DNA of 10,384 bases from a virus, in UHGV virus genome UHGV-0374782; one strand, given 5' to 3'. Position 1 is the stretch's first letter. Each line of letters opens with the position of its first letter. The translations under genes were made by a program, and so were the position numbers. This document shows, one piece after another, positions 2,392 through 9,540 of this stretch. A model generated the notes under the pieces. It saw nothing but the letters and a program-made list of their open reading frames with translations. It ran no database searches and was not told where the DNA came from.

Positions 2392-2945
2392 CTAATATTT
2401 ACCGGCGGGGATTTTTTTGTATAAGGTCGATATCCCAACATCATAAATAATCGCCACACGCCGCCGTGATTCTCCTGCCGCTAACAATCTTTCTGCCTGC
2501 GCCCATTGCTCCGGGGTTAATTTTGGTTTTCTGCCGCCGATCCTGCCCTCTGCACGCGCCGCAGACAATCCCGCCCTGGTGCGTTCGACAATCAACTCTC
2601 GCTCCATTTCAGCCAGTGCGCCCATGACGTGAAAGAAAAAACGCCCCATTGGCGAAGACGTATCTATGCTGTCAGTCAGGCTGCGAAAGTTAATCTCCCT
2701 TTCCCGCAGTTCCTCCACTAAAACGACAAGATGCCGCATGCTGCGACCGAGGCGATCCAGTTCCAGACCACAAGAGTATCGCCCTCTGACAAGGTTCGGA
2801 GCAGCCTTTTAAGCCCTGGTCTGTCTGATGTTTTACCGCTGATTTTGTCTTCAAAAATAAGCTCACATCCTGCGCACTCCAGTGCATTTCGCTGTAATGC
2901 GGTGTTCTGGTCATTTGTTGATACACGCACATAGCCGATAAGCAT
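2392..2945 (-). pseudogene. pin: Serine DNA invertase (Hin/Gin/Cin/Pin family), interrupted by a 1-nt frameshift
   Basis: Two adjacent minus-strand ORFs (2718..2945 and 2392..2739) together cover a full-length invertase. The N-terminal part has MLIGYVRVSTNDQNT...GDTLVVW with the catalytic Ser in VRVS. The C-terminal part has SLTDSIDTSSPMGRFFFHVMGALAEMERELIVERT and a C-terminal HTH. The frames rejoin if one nucleotide is restored in the sense sequence GTGGTCTGGAA-CTGGATCGCCTCGGTCGC (plus coords about 2760..2765), which would read W-K-L-D-R-L-G-R as in intact family members. The symbol is a family-level assignment. Confidence 0.85.
2846..2926. promoter_or_regulatory. Putative Fis-dependent recombinational enhancer inside the 5' coding region of the invertase gene
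   Basis: In hin, gin and cin the enhancer lies within the first ~100 bp of the invertase ORF, over codons for ...STxDQNxxLQRNAL.... The equivalent codons here (VSTNDQNTALQRNALECAGCE) map to about 2846..2926. This is positional inference only; individual Fis sites were not resolved. Confidence 0.3.
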
Positions 2946-2968
2946 GATAAATAGCCCTGTAAAAAGCC

Positions 2969-3550
2969 GTGATCATGCCATCCGAACGGAATAACTGCAT
3001 TTTCCAAAAGGTTGGTTTGGGAGAAGGCTCTGCATTACCGGTTGGGGTGCCTGTTCCGTGGCCTTCAGCCACTCCGCCAACAGGCTGGCTGAAATGCAAT
3101 GGTGCGGCTTTTTCTGCTGAAGAATACCCGGAACTGGCAAAGGCTTACCCGACCAATAAATTGCCTGATTTACGCGGTGAATTTATTCGTGGCTGGGATG
3201 ATGGACGTGGAGTGGATGCGGGGCGAGCCTTGCTAAGTCTTCAGGATGACTCTTTTGAAGCTCACAGACATGAGTCCTTTTTTTACGCGGGTATTTCACG
3301 CAATGAAACACCATTAAAAAATCTTCCAAGTTCAGACGAGATGCTGACTTTAAGTTCCACAACTAATGCCTTGTCCCCGGACAGTATTGATGCCACCAAT
3401 TCGTTAATTGGTAATGATGATTACAACTGTCTGATTGAAGGAAATAAAAATAACAAACGAACGGCAACGGGGTTGAGTACCAGTATTGTCGGTGCAGCAG
3501 AGACACGCCCACGTAATATTTCATTTAATTACATTGTGAGGGCTGCATGA
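2969..3550 (+). CDS. Alternative tail-fibre C-terminal cassette (Mu Sv'/P1 Sv'-like), silent in the present orientation
   Basis: The ORF reads through the crossover site in the same frame as the tail fibre gene (…FQKVGLGE|GSALPVGVPVPWP…). It carries the tail-collar motif PWP…PxGWLKCNG…YPELAKAYP…LPDLRGEFIRGWDDGRG and ends …NISFNYIVRAA, like Mu S / P1 S C-termini. The ATG at 2969 is unlikely to be a real start; only codons from about 3014 would be fused to the fibre constant region after inversion. Confidence 0.75.
   Translation: MIMPSERNNCIFQKVGLGEGSALPVGVPVPWPSATPPTGWLKCNGAAFSAEEYPELAKAYPTNKLPDLRGEFIRGWDDGRGVDAGRALLSLQDDSFEAHRHESFFYAGISRNETPLKNLPSSDEMLTLSSTTNALSPDSIDATNSLIGNDDYNCLIEGNKNNKRTATGLSTSIVGAAETRPRNISFNYIVRAA
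3000..3025. other. Invertase crossover site (gix/pix/hix-like), left boundary of the invertible segment
   Basis: 26-bp imperfect palindrome TTTTCCAAAAGG-TT-GGTTTGGGAGAA. The right half-site fits the family consensus GGTTTnnGAGAA exactly, and it is in inverted orientation relative to the site at 4638..4663. Confidence 0.8.
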
Positions 3551-4155
3551 TGTATAACGCTATCTTAAATAATAAATTTATTGCCACAAAGGCAGGAGAG
3601 GTTACCGTTTATAACTATGACAGTGAGACACGGGAGTATATTTCTGCATCAATTGAATATCTTGCTGTGGGTGTCGGTATCCCCGCATATTCCTGTTTAG
3701 ATGCTCCTGGCACACATAAGGCTGGTTATGCAATCTGCCGTTCTGCAGATTTTAACTCATGGGAATATGTGCCAGACCATCGCGGTGAAATCGTCTTTAG
3801 CACCGAAACAGGAGAATCAAAAGAAATCACAGCTCCGGGTGATTACCCTGATAATACAACCACTATCGCCCCGTTAACACCATACGATAAATGGGATGGT
3901 GAGAAATGGGTGACGGATACCGATGCACAGCATAGCGCCGCAGTAGATGCAGCAGAAGCACAACGCCTGTCGCTGATTGATACTGCAATGGCTTCCATCA
4001 GTCTGATTCAACTGAAATTACAGGCCGGACGGAATCTGACGCAGGCAGAAACCAGCCGACTTAACACGGTGCTGGATTACATTGACGCGGTGACGGCAAC
4101 AGATACCAGCACCGCGCCTGATATTATTTGGCCTGTATTCCCTGAGACTGATTAA
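3547..4155 (+). CDS. Tail fibre assembly protein (Tfa / Mu U'-like chaperone) for the alternative fibre tip
   Basis: 202-aa ORF overlapping the upstream cassette stop by ATGA. The C-terminal motif …LNTVLDYIDAVTATDTSTAPDIIWPVFPE is characteristic of the Tfa/gpG/U chaperone family. Confidence 0.85.
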   Translation: MMYNAILNNKFIATKAGEVTVYNYDSETREYISASIEYLAVGVGIPAYSCLDAPGTHKAGYAICRSADFNSWEYVPDHRGEIVFSTETGESKEITAPGDYPDNTTTIAPLTPYDKWDGEKWVTDTDAQHSAAVDAAEAQRLSLIDTAMASISLIQLKLQAGRNLTQAETSRLNTVLDYIDAVTATDTSTAPDIIWPVFPETD

Positions 4156-4384
4156 CCTCAATTAGTATTGGTTCGCCTTTCTCATTAATTGTTAGCTCCA
4201 TGCCCTGAGGAATTTCTGTCATAGTAAAAAACCAGTTGTCCTCCGGTAATTCAATAGCCCCGGTCACGTCATGAAGACCGGGGATTACTTCAGTCAAAGT
4301 AACTGGATTAAACAGGCGCACAATAAACCCTCCAGGAAAAAGCATTTGATGATGGTCTGCCGTCGTACATCTGGCAGCGGGCAT
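4124..4384 (-). CDS. Hypothetical small ORF downstream of the expressed fibre tip; the start is uncertain (candidate ATGs at 4345, 4222, 4201) and it may not be a gene
   Basis: 86-codon ORF whose 5' end overlaps the fibre gene's 3' end in another frame and whose 3' end overlaps the 3' end of the convergent Tfa gene by 32 nt. No convincing Shine-Dalgarno precedes any internal ATG. It has no Tfa-like C-terminal motif. It occupies the position where Mu or P1 would carry the second chaperone gene. Confidence 0.2.
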   Translation of the reverse strand: MPAARCTTADHHQMLFPGGFIVRLFNPVTLTEVIPGLHDVTGAIELPEDNWFFTMTEIPQGMELTINEKGEPILIEVNQSQGIQAK

Positions 4385-5699
4385 AAAAGCCGGTATTTGT
4401 TAACTGATCATCCACGATCATTGAAACGTGAACATTATTAGGTGTGCTCTCGTAATCCGTTCTTATTCTTTCCGCGATACTGATAAAACGTGAAAGTTTA
4501 GGCAGTGCAATTGGGTAAACAACTTTAGCCAGTCCATTATCATTAGATCCACCGGTTCCAAATACTTCTATTGCACCATCTGACCAGCGTATCCATGCAC
4601 CATTGGCATTAGCTCCTCGCTGAATGACATATCTGGCTTCTCCCAAACCAAGGTATTGGAGAAGGCCTGAAACACTTTTCCCACTGAGGTCGGTCAGTGT
4701 GGCATCCAGTGGTTGTTTACCTGCCAGTGCATTTGTGATTGTCGTGGCGAAGTTAGGGTCATTACCCAATGCGGCCGCCAGTTCATTTAACGTATCCAGT
4801 GCCTCCGGCGACGAGCCGACCAGCCCGGCAACCGCTGCTTTCACAAATGCCGTGGTAGCAATCTGCGTATTATTCACCGTCTGCGCAGCCGTCGGAGCCG
4901 TCGGCGTTCCGGTCAGGGCCGGGCTTGCCAGTGGTGCTTTCAGCGCCAACGCATTGTTAATAGTGGTGCTGAAATTTGGGTCATTGTTGATAGCCACAGC
5001 AATTTCTTTCAGCGTATCCAGCGTTGCCGGTGCTCCGCCGATCAGGGTAAGAATCGCCGCCTGCACAAAAGCAGTACTGGCAATCTGCGTGGTGTTATTC
5101 CCTGCCGGTGCCGTTGGTGTTTTTGGCGTTCCGGTAAGTGACGGGCTTTCCTTCGGTGCATATTGCTTATGCGGATCTGCCGCCGAAAGGTGAGAGTCCA
5201 TCAGCTTAGTTGCATAACTCTTAACCTCAAGCACTGCCACATCAACATACTGACGCGTTGCGAGTACCACAGACGGATCAATCTTCAGGGTAACTGCGTC
5301 CGTGCTCGATACAGTTAGAAGCATCCTGATAACCTGAGTTCGGCCCGATCCCTCATCTGTTGTCGCCTTGTATGTTTCCGGGCAGTTAGCAACAGCAATC
5401 AAATCACCATCAGCATCAAAAAGCCCGATTTCGCGAATCCACCAACCACCGGCAGATTCAGGAATAATTTGTTCTGCAATAATCTGGCTGTCGTTGTTTT
5501 TATCGACTGACAGGGAATTAAGCTGGGCGCGGCGCACCTCGTTAACCAGCTTCGTTTGAGCCTGGTTAGGGGTTGGCGATACACCGCCGCCATCACCTAC
5601 CGCGAGTGAAGTGATATTCAGCTTTTCACCCAGCGCCGCCATGTTTGATAATTTTGCTGCCCCCACATTAGTCAGCAGGGCAAAGTATTTAAGCGCCAT
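4308..5699 (-). CDS. Tail fibre protein (P2 gpH-like); constant region about aa 1-350, variable tip about aa 355-463 lying inside the invertible segment
   Basis: The N-terminus (…AVGDGGG…, …IRMLLTVSS…) resembles P2 gpH / Mu S N-terminal baseplate-attachment domains. The shaft has two about 74-aa repeats (LTGTP…NNTQIA.TAFV…LDTL.E.A.A..NDPNF.TTI.NALA.K). The C-terminal tip (…GAWIRWSDGAIEVFGT…VVYPIALP…TGFYARCQ…FSWRVY…) looks like a complete distal receptor-binding domain, but of a different class from the silent cassette. The start overlaps the upstream gpI-like gene end. Confidence 0.9.
   Translation of the reverse strand: MALKYFALLTNVGAAKLSNMAALGEKLNITSLAVGDGGGVSPTPNQAQTKLVNEVRRAQLNSLSVDKNNDSQIIAEQIIPESAGGWWIREIGLFDADGDLIAVANCPETYKATTDEGSGRTQVIRMLLTVSSTDAVTLKIDPSVVLATRQYVDVAVLEVKSYATKLMDSHLSAADPHKQYAPKESPSLTGTPKTPTAPAGNNTTQIASTAFVQAAILTLIGGAPATLDTLKEIAVAINNDPNFSTTINNALALKAPLASPALTGTPTAPTAAQTVNNTQIATTAFVKAAVAGLVGSSPEALDTLNELAAALGNDPNFATTITNALAGKQPLDATLTDLSGKSVSGLLQYLGLGEARYVIQRGANANGAWIRWSDGAIEVFGTGGSNDNGLAKVVYPIALPKLSRFISIAERIRTDYESTPNNVHVSMIVDDQLTNTGFYARCQMYDGRPSSNAFSWRVYCAPV
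4638..4663. other. Invertase crossover site (gix/pix/hix-like), right boundary of the invertible segment
   Basis: Plus strand TTCTCCCAAACCAAGGTATTGGAGAA; its reverse complement is TTCTCCAATACC-TT-GGTTTGGGAGAA. It shares 23 of 27 positions with the 3000..3025 site and the same central TT dinucleotide. Confidence 0.8.
4700..5145. repeat. Intragenic tandem direct repeat, two units with a 222-bp period, encoding the tail-fibre shaft repeats
   Basis: Anchors repeat at a 222-bp offset: gggtcatt at 4756 and 4978, cgtatccag at 4791 and 5013, gcaatctgcgt at 4858 and 5080. The units are imperfect (very roughly 70% identical by eye). Boundaries are approximate. Confidence 0.6.
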
Positions 5700-6303
5700 T
5701 TGTTACCTCTAACGTATCAATAATATGTATTGCTCCCCCAGGGAAATAACCGCCGCTTACTTCCACTGCTTCCGGCATATAGGGGTAAATTGTCATCACG
5801 TCGCCGCCATAGCACCCGGCGTGAGCGTAAAGCTTTCCCTCCACCTGCAAATTAATGGCAAGGCCGGTAAGGTGACGTGAGCACGGTTTTGCATCAGCGA
5901 TCAGGCGCTCAAGCTCACGATAGGTCTCCTCAGTAATTCCTGATTCAGAAACACCGATTTCAAGCTGAAATGTCCCTGGCTCACCGCCGGTCTGCCACCA
6001 CTCGATCACCTTTATCAGGAAGCCGAACGGCTCCACTACATGGCGTAGCGCCGCGATGGTTCCCTTCTGACGATGTACCACCCAGGCTGATTTGATCACC
6101 TGGCGTTTCGTTTGCTCTGACCAGTTCTTATCCCAGCGATCAACAGACAGCGCCCACGCCAGATAAGGCAGGAGGGCAACCGGGCATTCATCGGGATTCC
6201 ACAGCTTGCGCAAATCTACCGGAATATCTGTTATGCGCTGCGTACCCGCCTCTGCACGACGCATGAAATCGCTGGCTGAAGGAGGTAACAGACTTTTATT
6301 CAT
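5689..6303 (-). CDS. Baseplate / tail protein I (P2 gpI-like)
   Basis: Contains …LWNPDECPVALLPYLAWALSVDRWD…HRQKGTIAALRHVVEPFGFLIKVIEWW…ERLIADAKPCSRHL…, recalled similarity to P2 gpI. The preferred start is the ATG at 6303 (MNKSLLPP…), preceded by GAGGGGGA and overlapping the J stop in ATGAATAA. The longest ORF would extend to 6357, which would overlap the J-like gene by 60 nt and is less likely. Confidence 0.85.
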   Translation of the reverse strand: MNKSLLPPSASDFMRRAEAGTQRITDIPVDLRKLWNPDECPVALLPYLAWALSVDRWDKNWSEQTKRQVIKSAWVVHRQKGTIAALRHVVEPFGFLIKVIEWWQTGGEPGTFQLEIGVSESGITEETYRELERLIADAKPCSRHLTGLAINLQVEGKLYAHAGCYGGDVMTIYPYMPEAVEVSGGYFPGGAIHIIDTLEVTNGA

Positions 6304-7192
6304 CTGTTCCCCCTCTGGTGATTGTGACGGAGGTACAGCGCGCCGCCTGGGTATCACTGATCACCACATTGTTGATCGGCGACTGAACCTCCACGCGCTG
6401 CACACCCTGGACGTGTAACGCTGCCATGATTGCTGACAACGCAACATCACGACCAATACCTCCCTGCCCTGCCAGCCAGGATTGCAACGCCTTTTCAGCC
6501 GCATCAGCGATGGGCTCAGATTCCGGCCCCGGATAAAAGTAAAGGGTGGCGCTAATGTCGTAGTTAATGATCTCCGCGCTCTGTACGGTCAACCGGTCGC
6601 CAACCGGGCGCACGCTCTCATCCGATAACGCCGCGTTTACGGTGGTGATTAGCTCTGCTGAAGCCGTACCATCACCTTCTGAGGACAGTATCGATACAAT
6701 AACCTCGGCAGGTGCCGGGCTTGACGCTTTGGCGTCTGCCACCTTGCCAGAAGCGCTTTTTGCAAAATACTCATAAGCGGCGGTTGGCCCGGCAACACTC
6801 AGCCCTTCAAATGCCGCCTGAGCGCGCAAACGTAACTTTGAATCGCTTTCCATTACGGCACCTGTTGTATCGGTCGCCTCAGTAATGGTTAGTCTTTTGG
6901 TGTTGTTATTCGCCGCCAGGTTATCCAGATCCGTTGATGTGGCATGGCTTAACATGCACGCAGCAGCACCGTCATTTATGGCCTGCCGTAACATTAATTC
7001 ACGGTATGCCACCACCTGAGCGATCACATTTAGTGGCTCTGATTCAAGTTCCATCGCTGCCGCAATCGCGCTTTGCTTCTCTTTTGGGTAGGCCGAAATC
7101 ATCATCGCTTTCACTTCGCTCAAAATAACTTCGTAATCCAGCGTGGCGATCACTTCCGGTGGTGGCAGTTCCGATAAATCAATAGTTGCCAT
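6296..7192 (-). CDS. Baseplate assembly protein J (P2 gpJ-like)
   Basis: 298 aa with …LESEPL…YREL…RQ…, …RLTIT…, …AFEGLSVAG…Y…, …VRPV.DRLTVQSA…, …LY.YPGPESEPI…, …GRD..LSAI.AALHV.GVQRVE… matching the P2 gpJ pattern. It sits between the W-like and I-like genes as in P2. Confidence 0.9.
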   Translation of the reverse strand: MATIDLSELPPPEVIATLDYEVILSEVKAMMISAYPKEKQSAIAAAMELESEPLNVIAQVVAYRELMLRQAINDGAAACMLSHATSTDLDNLAANNNTKRLTITEATDTTGAVMESDSKLRLRAQAAFEGLSVAGPTAAYEYFAKSASGKVADAKASSPAPAEVIVSILSSEGDGTASAELITTVNAALSDESVRPVGDRLTVQSAEIINYDISATLYFYPGPESEPIADAAEKALQSWLAGQGGIGRDVALSAIMAALHVQGVQRVEVQSPINNVVISDTQAARCTSVTITRGGTDE

Positions 7193-7547
7193 TGTCCTGT
7201 TCCTTCAAAGTCACAGAGCCTGTCGCCGCCTGCATGGTGGTAGTGATCAGCCCGCTAAGTCCCACTGTCACCGCGCCGGACTCTGAAAAATTCACATCCA
7301 CCTGATTTAAAGCGATGCGCGGCTCCCACTGCGTTAAAGCAATCACCGTGGCGCTCATCAGTTGCAATCGTGTCGTTTCGTTCTGAGGCTCATCCAGCAA
7401 GTCAGGTAATAAACTGCCATACGTGCGGCGCATCACCCGCGACCCCAGCGGTGTTAACAGGACATCTTTCACCGACTGCCAGAGGTGATCACTGTCGGAA
7501 AGCGTTCCTGTTCCGGCCTGATTCATGCCCGTATATTTCGCTGTCAT
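7179..7547 (-). CDS. Baseplate assembly protein W (P2 gpW / gp25-like)
   Basis: 122 aa starting MTAKYTGMN… with …PLGSRVMRR.YGSLL…L.D.PQ…, recalled similarity to P2 gpW. ATGA overlap with the V stop. Confidence 0.85.
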   Translation of the reverse strand: MTAKYTGMNQAGTGTLSDSDHLWQSVKDVLLTPLGSRVMRRTYGSLLPDLLDEPQNETTRLQLMSATVIALTQWEPRIALNQVDVNFSESGAVTVGLSGLITTTMQAATGSVTLKEQDNGNY

Positions 7548-8125
7548 TGCGTCCCCTTCGTCCAGCTACCACCAGGTTGAACAGCGCCATGAGTATGTTC
7601 ATCAACCCGTACACCGTTTGAGGTAAGCGCGCCGCCGGTGTGTGTGACGCCGCCAGTCATCTTCCCACCCTCAGTGAAATCAAAGGTTTTTGCCTTCAGA
7701 TGGCTGGTACACTCCACCACCGCTGTATCAAGCGTGATTTTTGTCTCGGCCTGAATCGTTGCCGTTTTCATGCCGCTTGCGGTCAACGCGCTAACCTCTG
7801 CGTCATATTCGAATCTGGCCCCGTCAGGCGCTGTAACCACCATCTGTTTCAGGCTGGCAGAGGGGGCGTCATTTTCATTGCTGTACAGACTCCCCAGCAA
7901 AACCGCCGTTTCCGGGTTGCCACCGATACAGCCCAATAACACCTGCTCACCCCGCGACGGCGGACACCAAATCTTAAAATCACCGGCACGGCCTGTTTTC
8001 CAGCGAAGCCAGGTTGTTTTCAGTTCGCCGCTCTGTACGCGCACGCTTTTACCGTCTTCCGATATTTCCGCGACAATACCCACACGCAGCACGTTTTCCA
8101 GGAGTCTCATCAGTTCGGCGCTCAT
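7544..8125 (-). CDS. Baseplate spike/hub protein V (P2 gpV-like)
   Basis: 193 aa with an N-terminal …GIV.E…RV..G….T.WL.W…RAG… region and a C-terminal …THTGG.L.SNG…H.H… motif, as in P2 gpV. ATGA overlap with the S stop. Confidence 0.85.
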   Translation of the reverse strand: MSAELMRLLENVLRVGIVAEISEDGKSVRVQSGELKTTWLRWKTGRAGDFKIWCPPSRGEQVLLGCIGGNPETAVLLGSLYSNENDAPSASLKQMVVTAPDGARFEYDAEVSALTASGMKTATIQAETKITLDTAVVECTSHLKAKTFDFTEGGKMTGGVTHTGGALTSNGVRVDEHTHGAVQPGGSWTKGTQ

Positions 8126-8760
8126 TTCCCCGCACTCCCCAGACTGTTGATCACTGCACTACGGATCAGTGCCTCATCCGCTTTGGAAATTCCCAGCAAT
8201 ACGCGGGGGGCATATTTGGCGAAAGCACCGGGCCCAATCTGCTCACGTAAACCGTCCTGATGAATACGTGCAATACGCGCCGCCATACCACTAAAACCAA
8301 CCTCAGCACCTTCAGATGTCGCTTTCATCTTCATAAAGCGGGATGTGCGCAGCTTCACGAACATTGGCGCTTTGACGGTTCTGGGCGTCTGACCCGCCCG
8401 TGTATTAATCTCGGTATAGCGTTCAATGTCAGCCCGATAAAACGTGCGCACTTCATTCCTGTCTTCATCAAATCCGGTGATGGTTCGCCCGTACTTACCG
8501 CGTCCGCTGTGCCAGTTTTTCAGTCGTCGCAACTGACCTTCCCAGATGAAGGAGATCCCCTGCTGCGTGCGTAATTTTTTACGGCGTCGCGCCGGGTACT
8601 GGCTCCCGTCCGGATTACGTTGTGCGCGTATACGCTGCTGTTGGCTGATGCGCAGCATCTTCCCAACTTCACGCGCCGTCCTGGCTCGCCCGGTAGGTGA
8701 CACCCCCGCCAGGATGTCAGAGAAATACTGATCCAGTGTGTGAATACCTTCGGCACTCAT
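8122..8760 (-). CDS. Phage virion morphogenesis / tail completion protein S-like
   Basis: 212-aa basic protein in the position of P2 gpS, between R and V, with ATGA overlaps on both sides. The family call is from position and general resemblance to virion-morphogenesis (P2 S / Mu G) proteins. It is longer than P2 gpS (150 aa). Confidence 0.7.
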   Translation of the reverse strand: MSAEGIHTLDQYFSDILAGVSPTGRARTAREVGKMLRISQQQRIRAQRNPDGSQYPARRRKKLRTQQGISFIWEGQLRRLKNWHSGRGKYGRTITGFDEDRNEVRTFYRADIERYTEINTRAGQTPRTVKAPMFVKLRTSRFMKMKATSEGAEVGFSGMAARIARIHQDGLREQIGPGAFAKYAPRVLLGISKADEALIRSAVINSLGSAGK

Positions 8761-9212
8761 AAGGGCGCACTCCAGGTAACGTCCTCAATAATTCCGCTCC
8801 ATTCCGGCTGTATACGTGGGCGAGGCTCTGGCTTGTGATCTGCCTTTAACGTGCCATCGTCATTGCGCGTTACGATCACACGCTCGCTGATGGGTAATTC
8901 GAAAAATAAATCCGCAGTGTCGTCGCTGTTGATCGCCGTGGTGAATTTAATCTCTTTGTTTTTTTCAGGATTCAGCAACAGTTGCGGTTGCTCCTGCCAC
9001 AGCCAGGCCATCAACGGAAGGGTAAAATCATCCAGATCACCGGCAAAATTCATCACAAACAGACACAGCGTATAGGCATAAACAAAATCAGCCGTTTCGC
9101 CGGTCGTCTCCACATGCCCGGACTCAATGAACACACTGAAGGCTTCAGGGTTTGCCTTGCACCACTGGTTCGAACGGGTGAGCGCATCGCGCAGGGAGTT
9201 AATTTTCAGCAT
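8757..9212 (-). CDS. Tail completion protein R (P2 gpR-like)
   Basis: 151 aa starting MLKINSLRDALT…, recalled N-terminal similarity to P2 gpR (MLKPDSLRRALT…). It lies immediately downstream of the lysis genes and upstream of S, as in P2. Confidence 0.8.
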   Translation of the reverse strand: MLKINSLRDALTRSNQWCKANPEAFSVFIESGHVETTGETADFVYAYTLCLFVMNFAGDLDDFTLPLMAWLWQEQPQLLLNPEKNKEIKFTTAINSDDTADLFFELPISERVIVTRNDDGTLKADHKPEPRPRIQPEWSGIIEDVTWSAPL

Positions 9213-9540
9213 GTTGCTTAACCTCTTTACCTTGCTGGCGCGCCAGGCGCTTCAGATTCAACTCACTGATCGCACGCTTGTCCGCGTTGCAGCTATCAAG
9301 CGCGTCATGTAACCGATCGGCGTAAATCGCGATTCCACCCCACGTGACCGGCGTTTTCAGTTCCGGTTCCGGGGTTTCATTAGTCAGGCTTTGCGGTACT
9401 GGTTCGTGAATCAGCCGGGTTTGCACTTTTATCTTTTCTGAGCAACCCATTACTGACAGCAACAGGCACAACAGCACCGGCACATTTATCAGTACGCATC
9501 GCCGTGGACATATTTTCACGCCTGGCTTCACCTTCACCAT
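9199..9540 (-). CDS. o-spanin (LysC/Rz1-like outer-membrane lipoprotein), overlapping the i-spanin gene in another frame
   Basis: Start ATG at 9540 preceded by AGGAG. Signal peptide MVKVKPGVKICPRRCVLINVPVLLCLLLSVMG followed by Cys (lipobox-like VMGC). The mature part is Pro-rich with a C-terminal Cys. The gene begins inside the i-spanin gene and runs past its end into the start of R, the classic P2 lysB/lysC overlapped architecture. Confidence 0.6.
   Translation of the reverse strand: MVKVKPGVKICPRRCVLINVPVLLCLLLSVMGCSEKIKVQTRLIHEPVPQSLTNETPEPELKTPVTWGGIAIYADRLHDALDSCNADKRAISELNLKRLARQQGKEVKQHAEN

Follow-up and report, generated by a model that had tools for sequence, protein, structure and literature searches.

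The stretch of DNA analysed here (the window, 10,384 bases) is represented, with a single mismatch, in three assemblies of two E. coli strains, JX21CE33 from chicken in China and 30EVA2 from a human in Singapore. In both strains this DNA belongs to a P2-like prophage located beside yegQ and comprises its tail and baseplate part, with genes for the tape measure, gpU, an invertase, a fibre segment, fibre H, and the baseplate proteins I, J, W, and V. PGAP and Pfam assignments follow the P2 order, V-W-J-I-H fibre and then FI-FII-E-T-U-D-ogr, which is a Peduovirinae-type tail module. Annotations of three related loci (L001, L002, and L003) list GpU, tape measure, GpE, tube, sheath, GpD, Ogr, baseplate V, W, J, and I, and tail S and R. 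The phage collection contained one partial match only, at 87.7%, and thus yielded no sequenced free phage that belongs to this lineage.

Several features of the host genomes and of the window are worth recording. Position 29 carries A in the window and T in all 19 related loci, a private SNP that changes the tape-measure ATG to AAG (Met to Lys). Both hosts share an IS1A element in feaR, in addition to an IS1A-cut pinR-type gene, and these common insertions indicate that 30EVA2 and JX21CE33 are close relatives despite their different sources. The two JX21CE33 chromosome sequences (NZ_CP139177.1 and NZ_CP149449.1) differ in size by 172,459 bp, the exact length of pCE33-5, which has either integrated or been merged into the chromosome by assembly in one version.

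A pseudogene for a Gin/PinE-type serine DNA invertase, disrupted by a 1-nt deletion, occupies 2392..2945 on the minus strand. In the three-frame translation of this strand the recombinase frame switches at GTG GTC TGG AAC TGG ATC, between AA and C. Native residues 1-61 (MLIGYVRVSTNDQ...DTLVVW) give way to 14 out-of-frame residues that end at a stop codon (2718-2720), and the remainder (LDRLGRSMRHL...PAGKY), in the frame regained by one restored base, runs to the stop at 2392. The lesion itself is the remnant AA of the Lys62 codon at 2761..2762 on the minus strand (TT on the plus strand), within the interval 2755-2770 named by an earlier sequence-only reading of this DNA; the intact allele has AAA there (TTT on the plus strand). 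When one base is restored in GTGGTCTGGAA-CTGGAT, a protein of 184 aa results. This repaired protein has the domains of the invertase family, with Pfam Resolvase at residues 3-135 (E=5e-51), HTH_7 at 138-181, and Ser9 in VRVSTNDQ. It aligns without gaps over residues 1-182 with phage Mu Gin (PDB 3UJ3/4M6F, E=2e-90), including VVWKLDRLGRSM, against E=2e-31 for gamma-delta resolvase, and it is 87% identical to PinE of e14, clearly above resolvase level, and 44% to PinR of Rac. In the gene as it stands, the frame is lost at codon 62 and no single product contains both the resolvase domain and the HTH. The gene is labelled "recombinase family protein, frameshifted" by PGAP in both strains, and the pseudogene is thus already flagged in public annotation.

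The identity of the lost base is given by sister prophages, which were reached through the neighbouring gpU protein. Carrier loci read GGAACTGG and four intact loci (L014, L015, L017, and L018) read GGAAACTGG, so that one A has been lost from AAA; the 184-aa product of the intact loci is identical to the repaired protein. The lesion is carried by 15 of the 19 related loci fetched, either as the same DNA deletion or as the exact encoded 75-aa fragment. One of these (L009) has a synonymous SNP nearby, and its lesion was confirmed through translation. The sequence-only reading had proposed a single-base frameshift in an invertase of the Gin/Pin/Hin family, a Lys codon reduced to AA, and a catalytic Ser and C-terminal HTH that are otherwise intact once the base is restored. 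The three-frame translation, the Pfam domains, and the gapless Gin alignment bear this out, and the orthologous prophages to which it pointed do include the intact AAA allele.

Two minus-strand ORFs remain of the gene. The N-terminal fragment (2718..2945, 75 aa) consists of the 61 native residues, including Ser9, and the 14 out-of-frame residues, and lacks the KLDRLGRS motif (residues 62-69), the E-helix, and the HTH. The C-terminal fragment (2392..2739, 115 aa) starts at native Met70 and lacks the catalytic Ser9. Residues 62-69 hold conserved Asp/Arg active-site residues of serine recombinases such as gamma-delta resolvase and Gin. Neither a slippery heptamer (X XXY YYZ) nor a long homopolymer is present in GTC TGG AAC TGG ATC. 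Because of what each fragment lacks, and because there is no slippery site, the cis-encoded invertase is taken to be inactive, with a predicted activity of nil. In these systems a Fis-dependent enhancer lies in the 5' part of the invertase gene, and the Hin enhancer is ∼100-160 bp from hixL. Judged by those distances the deletion, located 251 bp from the crossover centre, is probably outside the predicted enhancer.

Next to the pseudogene, a pair of inverted repeats (2997-3026 and 4637-4666) holds two 26-bp crossover sites. One adjoins the invertase (3000..3025; TTTTCCAAAAGG TT GGTTTGGGAGAA) and is 55 nt from the invertase ATG (2945). The other is within the tail-fibre gene (4638..4663) and reads TTCTCCAATACC TT GGTTTGGGAGAA as its reverse complement. 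The two sites are in inverted orientation, hix-like, with a central TT/AA and a common inner half, and they match both crossover sites of the e14 P segment exactly in core and inner half. They delimit an invertible segment of 1.64 kb (3012..4651), containing two alternative fibre C-termini with their downstream genes, which is inverted in L003, L004, L008, L014, and L017. Taken alone, the segment (3012..4654) is 98.5-99.1% identical in other E. coli prophages (H77-H81), in which the rest of the window is unmatched, and the cassette appears to move between prophages as a unit.

The tail-fibre gene as currently joined (4308..5699, minus strand) encodes 463 aa with a Phage_tail_fib N-terminal domain. 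Its constant part extends to about 4652, and its variable C-terminus (4308..4651) matches the end of phrog_2557. Downstream of it on the same strand is a truncated gene of 86 aa (4124..4384), which covers the first 66 of the 145 profile positions of phrog_5400, an uncharacterised family in PHROGs. A truncated Tfa was considered for this ORF and ruled out, as it has no BLASTP similarity to two Tfa proteins. The window orientation may therefore be without a working fibre chaperone, given that the gene following the fibre is both truncated and unlike Tfa. On the plus strand, a silent alternative fibre C-terminus with a Collar domain (2969..3550) joins the constant part only after inversion, and is accompanied by a gene for a full-length tail-fibre assembly protein (Caudo_TAP; 3547..4155, plus strand). 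The inverted segment yields a 528-aa fibre, as seen in L003, L004, and L008.

Both orientations of the segment are found among prophages with the lesion. Four carrier loci (L001, L002, L007, and L010) have the orientation of the window and four (L003, L004, L008, and L011) are flipped, with the block 3012..4651 inverted, and the flanks of carriers in both orientations are 0-5 SNPs from the window. The flipped junctions are exactly in the 26-bp sites: each outer half-site remains attached to its flank, and the point of exchange lies within the common 15-17 nt. Among the 24 longest carrier contigs, ∼14 are apparently flipped and ∼4 are window-like, a count which assumes that collapsed 'similar places' have the arrangement of the locus displayed. 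Loci with the intact allele are likewise divided, L014 and L017 being flipped and L015 and L018 unflipped. Two carrier contigs (L012 and L019) break off at the crossover site, which is where branching reads would stop an assembler. Since the identical lesion occurs in both orientations, at least one inversion took place after the lesion, and a single origin of the lesion with at least one later inversion is the most economical reading.

Other rearrangements were observed in this prophage group. In three loci with the same frameshift (L005, L009, and L016) the whole segment has been replaced exactly at the two crossover sites, between the equivalents of window positions 3026 and 4637, by a different cassette encoding a 514-aa fibre, a 200-aa Tfa, a 147-aa Tfa, and a Gp53-like_C piece; the flanks are near-identical to those of the window, with one common SNP at window position 5633. 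A sister prophage (L013, also found in NZ_CP058308.1 of AMSCJX04, H46) has a 6.7-kb deletion (window 2705..9366), which starts within the invertase gene, reaches the lysis region, has TTCC microhomology at its junction, and has removed the fibre and baseplate genes. In the frameshift carrier L006, a capsid gene, cut to 223 aa, is fused to the fibre gene at window position 4765, ∼100 nt beyond the crossover site, and a large deletion has removed head-completion, lysis, and baseplate genes.

We consider it likely that a real single-base loss has killed the cis invertase and left the crossover sites intact, that helpers acting in trans flip the segment, and that it is frozen in hosts without a helper. 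The P2-like prophage at yegQ carries a segment of the Mu G or e14 P type that swaps the tail-fibre C-terminus, and its own Gin/PinE-type invertase has been reduced by the loss of one A of AAA (Lys62) to the 75-aa N-terminal fragment and, at best, the C-terminal one. Any compatible invertase that another prophage or a plasmid provides in trans should still be able to act on the segment, because both 26-bp sites are intact and have the core and inner half in common with the e14 P sites. Such action would be the simplest account of the two orientations among carriers of an identical lesion, and we infer that it has operated on this segment in the flipped carriers. In a host lacking a helper, the segment would keep the orientation in which it happened to be.

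Cross-complementation among Gin, Cin, Pin, and Hin is established, and was reportedly described by van de Putte et al. in 1984. Potential sources of related enzymes are widespread: when this invertase gene was compared by blastn with 5,426 complete E. coli genomes, 3,554 were matched one or more times. Trans inversion of another prophage's segment has been documented experimentally for PinQ, PinR, and PinE on e14: the e14 P segment is inverted by PinQ and PinR, which belong to other cryptic prophages, and is locked in pinE and pinE pinQ mutants (Kirigo et al. 2025, PMC12529663).

The strongest competitor, which we nevertheless regard as rather unlikely, is that the switch is locked permanently in all carriers with the fibre fixed as 4308..5699. 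It agrees with a dead cis invertase, with the window orientation of all three complete assemblies, and with the absence of any intact Gin/PinE-type or PinR-type gene from those found in 30EVA2 and JX21CE33. A search by DNA similarity, which reaches to about 65-70% identity and which a very divergent serine invertase would escape, found no second Gin/PinE-type gene in the chromosomes of the two strains (one place in each). When K-12 pinR was appended to the window-specific query, the number of places rose from one per chromosome, as in the control without pinR, to two, and each chromosome thus has exactly one PinR-type place. This place, located by synteny, is in both strains a 351-nt remnant annotated as "missing C-terminus" and abutting IS1A, i.e. 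an IS1A-cut pinR-type gene of a Rac remnant (L030 6381..6731 in 30EVA2; L031 24094..24444 in JX21CE33). The three plasmids of 30EVA2 contain no invertase and only resolvase-type genes with 26-44% identity, and the Tn3-type resolvases on plasmids of 30EVA2 and JX21CE33 have at most 44% identity to the repaired invertase. For JX21CE33 the plasmids were covered in part, pCE33-5 indirectly and the first 50 kb of pCE33-1 directly. Within that scope (both chromosomes, all 30EVA2 plasmids, and part of the JX21CE33 plasmids) no usable helper was found, and for this reason the switch is probably frozen in 30EVA2 and JX21CE33, in the orientation with the 463-aa fibre and a truncated chaperone-like downstream gene.

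What speaks against a lock in all carriers is the existence of the four flipped loci, which have the identical deletion and differ by 0-3 SNPs over about 9 kb, together with the excess of flipped arrangements among the 24 longest carrier contigs, provided that collapsed places are alike. The sequence-only reading had called the switch probably locked, with the fibre fixed in the 4308..5699 configuration unless another invertase acted in trans. As a general statement about carriers of the lesion neither part is supported; for 30EVA2 and JX21CE33, in which no usable helper was found within the scope above, both probably hold. Its reservation about trans-complementation was well placed, since carriers of one and the same lesion are found in either orientation, and the search for other invertases of the Hin/Gin/Pin family that it suggested has, in the sequences covered for these two strains, turned up the IS1A-truncated PinR-type gene only. 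"Locked" is thus a description of helper-free hosts and not of the allele as such.

The distribution of orientations could also be explained without any inversion after the lesion, if the same deletion arose twice or was moved by homologous recombination between prophages that were already in opposite orientations. Intact-allele prophages do occur in both orientations, and the haplotypes are almost free of SNPs and too similar to root a tree. We nonetheless find this very unlikely: the A3 run is not a hypermutable tract, a single origin plus inversion needs fewer events, and the SNPs characteristic of the flipped intact prophages L014 and L017 are all absent from the flipped carriers. The cassette swap at the crossover sites of L005, L009, and L016 is, moreover, a second sign of exchange at these positions.

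There is only a very slim chance that the deletion is a sequencing or assembly error and that the genome truly has AAA and an intact invertase. The site is a short homopolymer located 5 nt from GATC, and the 30EVA2 assembly has many 'frameshifted' plasmid genes, among them traP, psiA, ssb, an antirestriction gene, and IS26 on p30EVA2-1 (L020). These indicate indel errors in that assembly, and frameshifts in it need outside confirmation. Such confirmation is plentiful, however. The exact 75-aa N-terminal fragment, which has EHN7281069.1 among its accessions, is encoded on 120 contigs and indexed in ∼214 blocks. The assemblies concerned, from NCBI, ENA, and Logan, are the work of many laboratories, and the C-terminal fragment has been called as a gene in a 115-aa form on 28 contigs and in a 108-aa form on 116 contigs. 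The exact repaired 184-aa protein is present on 39 E. coli contigs. The intact allele is assembled correctly in the sister prophages L014, L015, L017, and L018, which means that the site is not systematically miscalled, and ∼214 independent occurrences of the lesion refute an error. The 30EVA2 assembly is unconvincing by itself, and it is the many independent assemblies that settle the matter: the lesion is real and not an assembly artefact.

The lesion is also young. Over 9,311 nt, the intact locus L015 differs from the window only by an inserted T at 2761 and by the SNP at position 29. The mutation is very recent and has spread through one E. coli prophage lineage. Of the two origins that the sequence-only reading had offered, a recent lesion or a sequencing error, the near-identity of L015 favours the first and the ∼214 blocks and 120 contigs dispose of the second. 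The weakest alternative, that the frameshifted gene still yields active enzyme by ribosomal frameshifting or through cooperating fragments, would also account for both orientations among carriers, but we give it next to no credence and reject it on sequence grounds, as the junction offers no slippery heptamer and no homopolymer long enough for transcriptional slippage, and as the two fragments together lack residues 62-69.

Trans-acting helpers on an otherwise intact switch thus remain our preferred explanation, and the system fits well among its known relatives. It most resembles the PinE/P segment of the cryptic prophage e14 of K-12, in the repaired invertase, in the position of this gene beside a segment with two opposed fibre C-termini and tfa genes, and in the identical crossover core and inner half-site (TT GGTTTGGGAGAA). 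It differs from e14, a remnant at icd, in belonging to a complete-looking P2-like prophage at yegQ, in its frameshifted invertase, and in the truncated downstream gene carried by one half of the segment. Gin/G of Mu, Cin/C of P1, and Hin/H of Salmonella have the same domains as the repaired protein, which aligns with Gin from end to end. As at hix, the sites are 26-bp imperfect palindromes with a central TT/AA; the switch here exchanges tail-fibre C-termini. What sets the present enzyme apart from Gin, Cin, and Hin is that its gene is a pseudogene. In Mu gin- and in a K-12 pinE deletion, a segment deprived of its cis invertase is frozen unless another invertase is present, and the same would apply here. 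Unlike those laboratory mutants, this is a natural allele that circulates in wild E. coli and is not kept in one orientation. The lesion is an instance of ordinary prophage decay, and the mechanism lies wholly within the known Gin/Pin family.

A broken invertase gene beside an invertible segment does not prove that the switch is frozen, as sister genomes show flips that have occurred since the lesion. These flips agree with the known cross-talk among prophage invertases. In strains without a helper, the prophage is probably confined to the fibre variant that is followed by a truncated chaperone-like gene, and any particles that are still made may be restricted in infectivity or host range as a result. 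More tentatively, we suggest as a possibility that this is a still-transmissible P2-like lineage which has lost its own invertase and relies on the invertases of resident cryptic prophages for host-range switching. If so, the prophages resident in each successive host would determine the fibre type, and exchange of entire cassettes at the crossover sites, of the kind seen in L005, L009, and L016, could occur too.
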